Assembly (NCBI GenBank): GCA_024226255.1
Contig: JAAELU010000141.1
Span: 23,093 to 87,092 of the forward strand
Direction: 5' to 3'
Origin: a bacterium
GTDB taxonomy: Bacteria; Actinomycetota; Acidimicrobiia; Spongiisociales; UBA5794
Length of the DNA stretch: 64,000 nucleotides
Shown: positions 7,349 to 7,510 of the stretch, one piece after another
Layout: each line of letters starts with the position of its first letter
Numbering within the stretch: the stretch's first letter is position 1
Notes under the pieces: model-generated
What the model was told of the DNA's origin: nothing
The model's input: the letters and a program-made list of their open reading frames with translations, nothing else
Databases searched by the model: none
Program-made: the position numbers and the translations under genes

Positions 7349-7510
7349 TATCCGAGCGTTGTCTTTCACGCCGTGCGCGATTCCGTGTGCGGTTTCCTAT
7401 TGAGGTGTGTCGTTGTTTGAGCTCTTTGGGCGGCTCGCGCTCCAACTGCTGTTGTGACTGTGGTGGCGCCGGTTGCTGGCGCGGATAAGGTTCGATCCCA
7501 GTAGCGCCCA
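7349..7510 (+). repeat. Copy a of a roughly 160-bp dispersed repeat that ends in a 22-bp copy of the tRNA-Val 3' end (ggttcgatcccagtagcgccca, 7489-7510)
   Basis: The body is about 75% identical to 9688-9831, 12497-12586 and 53060-53190. The 3' terminus is identical to the T-loop/acceptor 3' strand of tRNA-Val(GAC) 140 bp upstream. Confidence 0.8.

Follow-up and report, generated by a model that had tools for sequence, protein, structure and literature searches.

What gives rise to a short repeat whose every copy ends in a piece of a neighbouring tRNA gene? The question is raised by a 64-kb stretch of an Acidimicrobiia genome (contig JAAELU010000141.1 of assembly GCA_024226255.1, positions 23,093 to 87,092; hereafter the window, G+C ~63%), in which units of ~160 bp lie behind two tRNA-Val genes and terminate in copies of the tRNA-Val 3′ end. 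An earlier note, made from the letters of this DNA, had proposed either a miniature non-autonomous integrative element or stacked attachment-site (att) remnants of serial island insertions. That interpretation proved essentially right, and both of its parts find support, with mobility of the 160-bp unit itself being putative. The repeats are, on balance, probably att scars of tRNA-Val-specific tyrosine-integrase elements, among them cargo-less attP-like mini-units interleaved with islets that have no integrase. We regard them as a small, conserved miniature form of a known process, namely the att scars and the remnants resembling cis-mobilizable elements (CIMEs) at tRNA-gene (tDNA) hot spots, and not as a new kind of element.

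The evidence begins with the tails. The 23-mer GGTTCGATCCCAGTAGCGCCCAC spans tRNA-Val from the T-loop to the discriminator. With up to three mismatches allowed, it matched the window seven times, always on the plus strand, and not once in 100 shuffled versions of the window. Two matches are the tRNA-Val genes themselves, at 7324-7346 (anticodon GAC) and 42546-42568 (CAC); the remaining five are extra copies, here called tails a to e.

7274-7348, plus strand: tRNA-Val(GAC), last gene of a Gly-Cys-Val cluster (ARAGORN; Rfam RF00005, 69.2 bits)
7489-7511, plus strand: tail a, 0 mismatches, an exact 23-nt copy of tRNA-Val(GAC) from the T-loop to the 3′ end
9832-9854, plus strand: tail b, 3 mismatches
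12587-12609, plus strand: tail c, 3 mismatches
42496-42569, plus strand: tRNA-Val(CAC), head of the second stack (ARAGORN, Rfam)
44467-44489, plus strand: tail e, identical to the variant of the tRNA-Val(CAC) gene
53191-53213, plus strand: tail d, 3 mismatches

These tails form two co-oriented stacks. The first, a/b/c, lies downstream of tRNA-Val(GAC), which closes the plus-strand Gly-Cys-Val(GAC) cluster at 7050-7348 (ARAGORN, Rfam) and is the intact, attL-type target heading this stack; the second, e/d, lies downstream of tRNA-Val(CAC). In both stacks the tRNA-proximal tail is perfect and the distal tails are decayed, with three mismatches each. An intact tRNA gene followed in the same orientation by displaced fragments of its 3′ end, five here and none by chance, is an arrangement that Islander takes as a sign of integration. 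The repeat reported in the earlier note is real, as the five extra tails and the homologous bodies a, b and d show; calling it dispersed is misleading, since every copy sits downstream of, and co-oriented with, a tRNA-Val gene, and the tail consensus quoted there is inexact for b and d.

To the left of the tail, copies a, b and d share a homologous body of ~140 nt, the unit of ~160 bp being body plus tail. Bodies a and b are 75% identical (z=17.6), a and d 73% (z=11.7), and b and d 69% (z=3.7), a similarity above chance in each pair. Body c is marginal and degenerate (65% to a, z=3.8), and copy e retains merely ~20 nt of body (nhmmer). Of the copies counted previously, at least four full ones and one tail, a, b and d stand, c is degenerate and e is almost tail-only; the 70-75% identity given for the bodies holds for a/b and a/d, is missed by b/d, and drops to 47-64% in a seven-way alignment. 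Copies within this genome have diverged from each other as much as from copies in other genomes; no burst of copying has taken place recently. The units and their partial relatives are arranged as follows.

7349-7488, plus strand: body of unit a; 5′ half with a terminator-like hairpin (7370-7393) and then TTTCCTATT, 3′ half with the blocks TTGGGCGGCTCG and GCGCGGATAAGG
9676-9689, plus strand: degenerate displaced tRNA 3′ end (cttccgaCGCCCAC), 3 nt before body b, identified from the sequence
9690-9854, plus strand: unit b (body 9690-9831, tail 9832-9854)
12440-12609, plus strand: unit c (degenerate, internally deleted body; tail 12587-12609)
12610-12680, plus strand: c2, a flank of 5′-body type behind tail c (terminator-like hairpin, 12628-12654)
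44446-44490, plus strand: copy e (~20 nt of the 3′ end of the body, ctggtttgggcttgata, and a tail as in the tRNA-Val(CAC) 3′ end)
53050-53213, plus strand: unit d (body 53050-53190 with a weak hairpin at 53084-53096, tail 53191-53213)
53214-53245, plus strand: d2, start of another 5′-body-type flank (ctagatAGCCGAGCGTCGGCTCACG) after tail d, placed by its alignment z

In front of each of units b and c stands a decayed tRNA 3′ end. At b this bears out the degenerate att-like 9-mer noticed previously: CGCCCAC stands 3 nt before ATCCGAGC, exactly as at the junction of the tRNA gene and unit a. The same two units share an extra upstream block, GGGC(C)TGACCTC(T/C)G (9662-9675 and 12458-12471); its TGACCTC is the reverse complement of GAGGTCA in the tRNA and could either belong to a longer, decayed piece of the tRNA or be there by chance. 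The second partial body suspected after tail c was also recovered: c2 reaches z=6-7 against the 5′ bodies of three related loci (L158, L037 and L248 in our numbering), with the exact 18-mer GAGCGTTGATCCGGTCGC in common. Either another unit begins here or c2 is native tRNA flank. For d2, z is 4.0-4.7 against the flanks that follow the window's tRNA-Val(GAC) and a pseudo-tRNA in L037.

The left edge of the tail is sharp. In every copy, from at least five genomes, tRNA homology begins at GG|TTCGA, and to its left the T-stem half ACTGG is replaced by the near-constant non-tRNA sequence GCGCGGAKAAGG, or a close variant in a few copies. The fragments hence begin at the canonical T-loop crossover with non-tRNA DNA on their left, the second feature sought by Islander. 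In the ssrA islands of Dehalococcoides, a conserved motif upstream of each 20-bp direct repeat placed the crossover in the T-loop (PMC3146451); by the same logic, we infer a T-loop crossover here from the left-flank motif.

The body itself is bipartite. Its 5′ half contains a hairpin followed by a U-rich tract in a (7370-7393, 10 bp), in c2 (12628-12654, 11 bp) and, weakly, in d, as well as in the related loci L248, L037, L158 and L034; L158 and L248 have a second terminator-like hairpin after the tail. The 3′ half carries the TTGGGCGGCTCG block ~65 nt upstream of the tail. No covariation was detected in the conserved blocks (RNAalifold; pair check), as expected of protein-binding DNA. The end blocks of the unit, TCCGAGC and GCGCGGA, form a short and imperfect inverted repeat; written as ACCATATCCGAGC / GCGCGGATAAGGT, they are complementary at 11 of 13 positions. 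Depending on the copy, an inverted-repeat arm stands 3 to 9 nt from the edge of the unit.

Related loci tie the unit to integrases. Four true relatives (L026, L034, L037 and L158) were among the matches listed in scans of genome contigs and metagenomes. The pattern for the genome-contig scan was loose, with 80 of at least 120 loci listed and most of them unrelated, and the metagenome scan was dominated by a different, soil-derived family. Further loci came from protein-anchored look-ups: a 348-aa neighbouring protein, which places the window in a metagenome-assembled genome (MAG; GY720_03495, on a contig of 90 kb), has among its relatives proteins attributed to Acidimicrobiia MAGs. For the DsrE gene, taken with either of two start codons, no encoding contig was on record. 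Across the related Acidimicrobiia MAGs, the unit occurs behind tRNA-Val(GAC), tRNA-Val(CAC) and a pseudo-tRNA-Val(TAC). No related sequence was found in IMG/VR, among PLSDB plasmids or among INPHARED phages.

At L248 (GCA_041608315.1, JBFISZ010000001.1), dut and the tRNA cluster Gly-Cys-Val(GAC) are followed by one 163-bp unit. A tyrosine-integrase gene, frameshifted and convergent to the tRNA, has its 3′ end 45 bp further on, and beyond it lie two more integrase genes and an IS110 transposase gene. Loci L242 and L249-L251 have the same tRNA cluster with no unit directly behind tRNA-Val(GAC), and there the same integrase family ends 45-130 bp after tRNA-Val; at L249 (contig k141_955639) no further tail occurs within 10 kb. 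The family (PF00589) is convergent to the tRNA and lies 45 bp past the tail in both L248 and L037, and its homologues adjoin tRNA-Ala, tRNA-Glu and tRNA-Ile in other genomes. When the tail of L248 and its downstream DNA are aligned with the tRNA 3′ end of L249 and its downstream DNA, 188 of 220 positions match, and the tRNA sides are identical at 90 of 92. What sets the two loci apart, with flanks that can otherwise be aligned, is exactly one 163-bp unit. A locus without unit d beside the orthologous gene also exists (L254, on a contig of only 1.2 kb).

L037 adds the other end of such an element. There, a pseudo-tRNA-Val(GAC) is followed by a unit 96% identical to that of L248, a first tail, and the integrase-proximal flank with the last ~25 integrase codons; a second tail follows after 3.7 kb of other DNA, preceded by the 3′ two-thirds of a body. 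The resulting 3.8-kb islet (3835-7633) has an integrase remnant at its start and the 3′ body with tail at its end (E=4.5e-18), which connects the 3′ body with the attR end of an integrase-bearing element.

The tails also follow the local target. They are of GAC type behind tRNA-Val(GAC) and of CAC type in e. In L034, an intact tRNA-Val(CAC) precedes a unit whose tail shares that tRNA's AGTGCCC variant, and in L026 the 3′ part of tRNA-Val(TAC) precedes a body and a tail that copies the distinct T-stem and acceptor of this isoacceptor, CCGTCAACGCCC. L158 has a decayed 3′ third of tRNA-Val, a unit, a tail and a clean terminator hairpin. Identity between tail and upstream tRNA spans 23-26 nt in a, e, L034, L248 and L026. 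A near-constant, element-type left flank, a right part matching the target, and integrase genes abutting the tRNA or the tails in relatives are together the signature of T-loop site-specific recombination by a tRNA-targeting tyrosine integrase, and uphold the earlier suggestion that the tails are att-type copies.

Several further features were observed at these loci. Directly behind the decayed integrase of L248 are two adjacent, apparently intact tyrosine-recombinase genes (5859-8161; 420 and 347 aa), and the IS110-family transposase gene lies at the locus edge (1-136); the DNA behind tRNA-Val(GAC) is a hot spot for several element types. The integrase beside tRNA-Val(GAC) is split into two overlapping open reading frames (ORFs) of 171 and 104 aa in L249 (10001-10785), L250 (1103-1887) and L251 (320-1104); the same split on contigs from three samples indicates a fixed frameshift, in either a decaying gene or a programmed shift. 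L037 holds a second short repeat, GGCGACGGATTA(C/G)CCACATATCC, at 3392-3417 and 7495-7522, one copy ~190 nt upstream of the pseudo-tRNA and the other exactly at the start of the truncated second unit; the unit may have been cut by a different mobile element whose end this repeat marks. Two candidate homologies were rejected. The 5′ body and the integrase 3′ end or proximal flank share just a GTGCGCGATTC motif (most z <2), and an apparent tblastx match that would have made the DNA downstream of the L034 tail syntenic with that downstream of d failed in tblastn.

Between the tails of the window lie four islets (no overall strand is assigned to the last three).

7512-9675, plus strand: islet 1, between tail a and the degenerate core; RTX/HemolysinCabind gene at 7768-9639 (Pfam)
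9855-12439: islet 2, minus-strand ORFs at 10629-11246 and 11539-12396 with signal-peptide or lipobox-like N-termini
42570-44445: islet 3, alpha/beta hydrolase gene at 42804-43655 (minus strand) and HxlR-type regulator gene at 43559-44440 (plus strand)
44491-53049: islet 4, 8.6 kb, with genes for OmdA/YdeI, a TIR and solute-binding protein, a hydrolase, DUF3179, TusA, a CCG/Fer4 protein and DsrE

Units a and b, like islets 1-4, lie between cores and contain no recombinase, and an integrase family is known from the relatives; this is the composition expected of CIMEs. In copy e, the ~20 nt of core-proximal body end directly follow cargo. The ORFs of islet 2 match no Pfam family and have third-position G+C (GC3) of 0.64-0.69, the ORFs compared with them being above 0.72. 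The sole gene of islet 1 (7768-9639, plus strand) encodes a 623-aa protein with RTX (HemolysinCabind, six repeat stretches) and Big_7 domains. Two TIR-domain proteins are encoded in the window, one at 45264-47330 (plus strand; TIR_2 fused to a solute-binding domain), within the 8.6-kb islet between tails e and d, and one at 60001-62328 (minus strand; TIR_2 and DUF6777); both may be defence cargo.

How could these pieces have come together? On the reading we favour, site-specific recombination at the tRNA-Val T-loop by a family of tRNA-targeting tyrosine integrases would have yielded the repeats. Each 23-26-nt tail, a duplicated or displaced 3′ end of the local tRNA-Val, would be an att core of attR type, and the ~140 bp to its left would be element-derived att-arm DNA in two parts. 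In the core-distal, tRNA-proximal half, the hairpin and U-rich tract would terminate the restored tRNA transcript; in the core-proximal half, the conserved blocks from TTGGGCGGCTCG to GCGCGGAKAAGG are putative sites, probably bound by the recombinase or accessory proteins. Units a and b, together with those of L248, L034, L158 and L026, would be cargo-less, consisting of two arms and a core, as would remain if a bare attP had recombined with the tRNA. The remaining intervals (the RTX gene, the two secreted-protein genes, the hydrolase/HxlR pair and the 8.6-kb TIR/DsrE segment) would be small integrase-less islets bounded by tails. Insertions would have piled up behind tRNA-Val(GAC) and tRNA-Val(CAC), with tails serving as additional att sites, and the integrase genes would since have been lost from this genome.

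A number of observations weigh against this account. The window contains no integrase, nor a remnant of one, by Pfam, as the earlier note had stated, and tblastn with the integrases of L248, L242 and L037 gave nothing below E=0.1 in it; an integrase inside the interval beside the tRNA, as Islander requires, was found solely in the relatives L242, L248 and L249-L251. None of the loci recovered contains an intact element that runs from an integrase to a full body and tail, the flanks of L248 and L249 stop short of any distal att site, and islets 1 and 2 end with no recognizable 3′ body. The difference between L248 and L249 could equally reflect one element using alternative att sites, the tail or the tRNA. 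A circle of 163 bp would be an unlikely, awkward substrate for recombination. The 5′-body-type flanks after tails c and d also fit a tandem duplication of native tRNA flank, and a tail that always matches the variant of its neighbouring tRNA requires either element cores pre-adapted to each isoacceptor or local duplication. Finally, the copy count rests on a 64-kb window.

A stronger version of the same reading would make the 160-bp unit a miniature integrative element in its own right, a bare attP that would be for tyrosine integrases what miniature inverted-repeat transposable elements (MITEs) are for transposases. Its two arms, with a built-in tRNA terminator, and its core would be moved in trans by tRNA-Val-specific integrases, each insertion creating a secondary att site for the accretion of islets. 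We put this forward tentatively and consider it doubtful.

The att-scar reading is set in context by several known systems. In tandem tDNA and transfer-messenger RNA (tmRNA) islands (Islander, PMC4383910; PMC3146451), too, an intact target comes first and direct-orientation copies of its 3′ end then delimit one segment after another; a conserved motif foreign to the target, just upstream of each direct repeat, marks the T-loop crossover, some segments have no integrase, and an integrase beside attL lies on the reverse strand (here in the relatives). The ssrA islands of Dehalococcoides are stacked in tandem in this way, and those lacking an integrase were likened to cis-mobilizable elements (PMC3146451); they use a serine recombinase, whereas the relatives here carry a tyrosine integrase. 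The window differs in having no integrase, so that Islander would reject its intervals, and in its segments of 0.16-8.6 kb, several of which are cargo-less conserved 160-bp units. Mycobacteriophage Ms6, which integrates at tRNA-Ala, provides a T-loop attB/attP system of an actinobacterial integrase (PMC1762012). It shares the crossover in the tRNA T-loop and an identity block reaching the tRNA 3′ end, but it is a complete phage with its own integrase, and only att-type remnants are present here. CIMEs are best compared with those of the integrative conjugative and integrative mobilizable element (ICE/IME) systems of Streptococcus (PMC3146451, PMC5704250). They too have attL and attR flanks, no recombination or transfer functions, and accretion beside related integrase-bearing elements, and an integrase supplied by a neighbour could move them, as by analogy might happen here. 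To our knowledge, the CIMEs described so far are kilobase-sized and gene-carrying; the unit here, by contrast, would be att arms alone (~140 bp).

The closest rival to integration comes from the tRNA-linked repeats (TLRs) of E. coli, which include the 178-bp tyrT repeats, the RtT RNA and the rrn-linked RrA/B/F RNAs (PMC8144298). The last 18-19 nt of these repeats are those of the tRNA or rRNA before them, and some repeats are enclosed by two terminators; where they come from, a question open since 1978, and what most of them do are both unexplained (PMC8144298). By this comparison the unit would be a native, selected trailer of tRNA-Val transcription units acting as RNA, a 3′-processing signal or a small RNA, with the order tRNA, first terminator, ~85 nt ending in a tRNA 3′-end copy and sometimes a second terminator; islands would have integrated around it and displaced copies. 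The resemblance is considerable. Both kinds of unit measure 100-180 bp, follow a tRNA or rRNA gene, can be tandem, can lie between two terminators (as in rrn; PMC8144298), and end in the 3′ end of the upstream gene (18-19 nt there, 23-26 here). The hairpin with U-rich tract in the 5′ half of a, c2, L248, L037, L158 and L034 and the second hairpin past the tail in L158 and L248 reproduce this layout, a co-oriented gene precedes most copies, and the unit stands behind three tRNA-Val isoacceptors with blocks conserved between genomes whose neighbouring protein is only ~60% identical. However, the unit does not behave as a structured RNA, a candidate that we rejected. Shuffled sequences fold as well as the whole unit (z=0.29), the RNAalifold covariation term is +0.29, with no positive covariation, and the 3′ half has no supported helix; a tRNA-like acceptor pairing of GGGCGGCT with AGCGCCC, also tried, is broken in b and d by changes that are not compensated. 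Nothing in the window besides tRNAs exceeded an Rfam gathering threshold, and cmscan of 7349-7530 at E<=10 gave no family, RtT included, beyond a chance isrG match. A terminator in the first half would halt most transcription ahead of the conserved part, making read-through from the tRNA operon uncertain, and tRNA-Val(GAC) has no unit directly behind it in L242 and L249-L251. The units here further differ from the E. coli repeats in having no sequence or Rfam homology to them, in occurring in Acidimicrobiia, in being interleaved with gene-bearing islets and abutting integrase genes in relatives, and in being known from DNA alone. The constant non-tRNA flank at the T-loop and the integrase genes abutting the tails would be left unexplained, and we judge a native RNA trailer unlikely.

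Duplication or transposition would account for less. If tandem duplications of tRNA-Val and its terminator, produced by unequal crossing-over, had decayed neutrally, the 3′ half of the body would be a pseudo-tRNA-Val whose best-preserved part is the tail. In keeping with this, GGGCGGCT in the body resembles the 5′ acceptor strand GGGCGCT and lies 61-64 nt before the tail in most copies (39 nt in L034), genuine pseudo-tRNA-Val fragments precede the units of L037, L158 and L026, and the stacks end in partial units (c2, d2), like tandem arrays. Yet in global alignments with tRNA-Val the 3′ half scores no better than shuffled sequence (z -0.7 to 2.8, in inconsistent registers), the tRNA covariance model (RF00005) is silent on 7349-7530 at E<=10, and ARAGORN finds no extra genes, on which grounds we rejected a pseudo-tRNA origin of the 3′ body. 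The same non-tRNA replacement of the 5′ half of the T-stem in all copies is a shared sharp boundary and not gradual decay, and blocks alignable across genomes would not persist in neutral DNA; neutral decay is quite improbable. Still less credible, to the point of being very improbable, is a MITE- or casposon-like element with short terminal inverted repeats that inserts at the tRNA-Val 3′ end and duplicates ~23 bp of target. Its appeal lies in the imperfect inverted repeats at the end blocks and in flanking direct repeats that always equal the local target, as target-site duplications do. But an arm-to-boundary distance of 3 to 9 nt means that the arms are not true termini, and transposon-type terminal repeats were rejected on this ground: the inverted repeat, of 7-13 nt, is not at fixed ends. 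A duplication of 23-26 bp matches no known transposase, and target duplications of casposons are 14-15 bp. Neither a transposase nor a Cas1 gene is linked to the unit in any locus, and tyrosine integrases are.

Two other families were met in the scans. The abundant soil-metagenome family (L121-L240) comprises at least 78 loci, 66 of them distinct at <80% identity (for example L180, 2617-2637, minus strand, and L195, 3649-3669). Its upstream sequences are unrelated, and all members end in a conserved ~55 nt, ...cTAC GCGGAGAAGGTTCGAtCCCAGTTCCTCTCCCTCCGCCA, that is neither tRNA nor tmRNA by ARAGORN and has no Rfam match. The family ends in G+CCA like tRNA-Ser, yet is 5 nt too long past the T-loop, and it has an unpaired GAAGG left flank in common with the window repeat. 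Related integrases acting on a different target may have left it as att scars, or it may be the 3′ domain of an RNA not yet described. In an Aestuariivita MAG (OZ244059.1), seven near-identical copies containing GCGGATAAGGTTCGAGCCC (L019, L029, L030, L040, L048, L052 and L076) are an unrelated multicopy alphaproteobacterial element, a chance match to the pattern.

If the repeats were only decayed scars, they would amount to ordinary genome archaeology. If the att-scar reading with its cargo-less units holds, tRNA-targeted integration can leave behind persistent, conserved att modules without cargo. Such modules would multiply the att sites available behind the tRNA gene and seed small islets free of integrases, which here carry genes for RTX, TIR-domain and sulfur-carrier proteins; none of this would be detected by island finders that depend on an integrase. 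The reading would also offer a concrete, testable origin for tRNA-linked repeats (PMC8144298). Should the unit prove to be a bare-attP element, it would be an actinobacterial counterpart of the tRNA-linked repeats in E. coli and give a hint of their origin.

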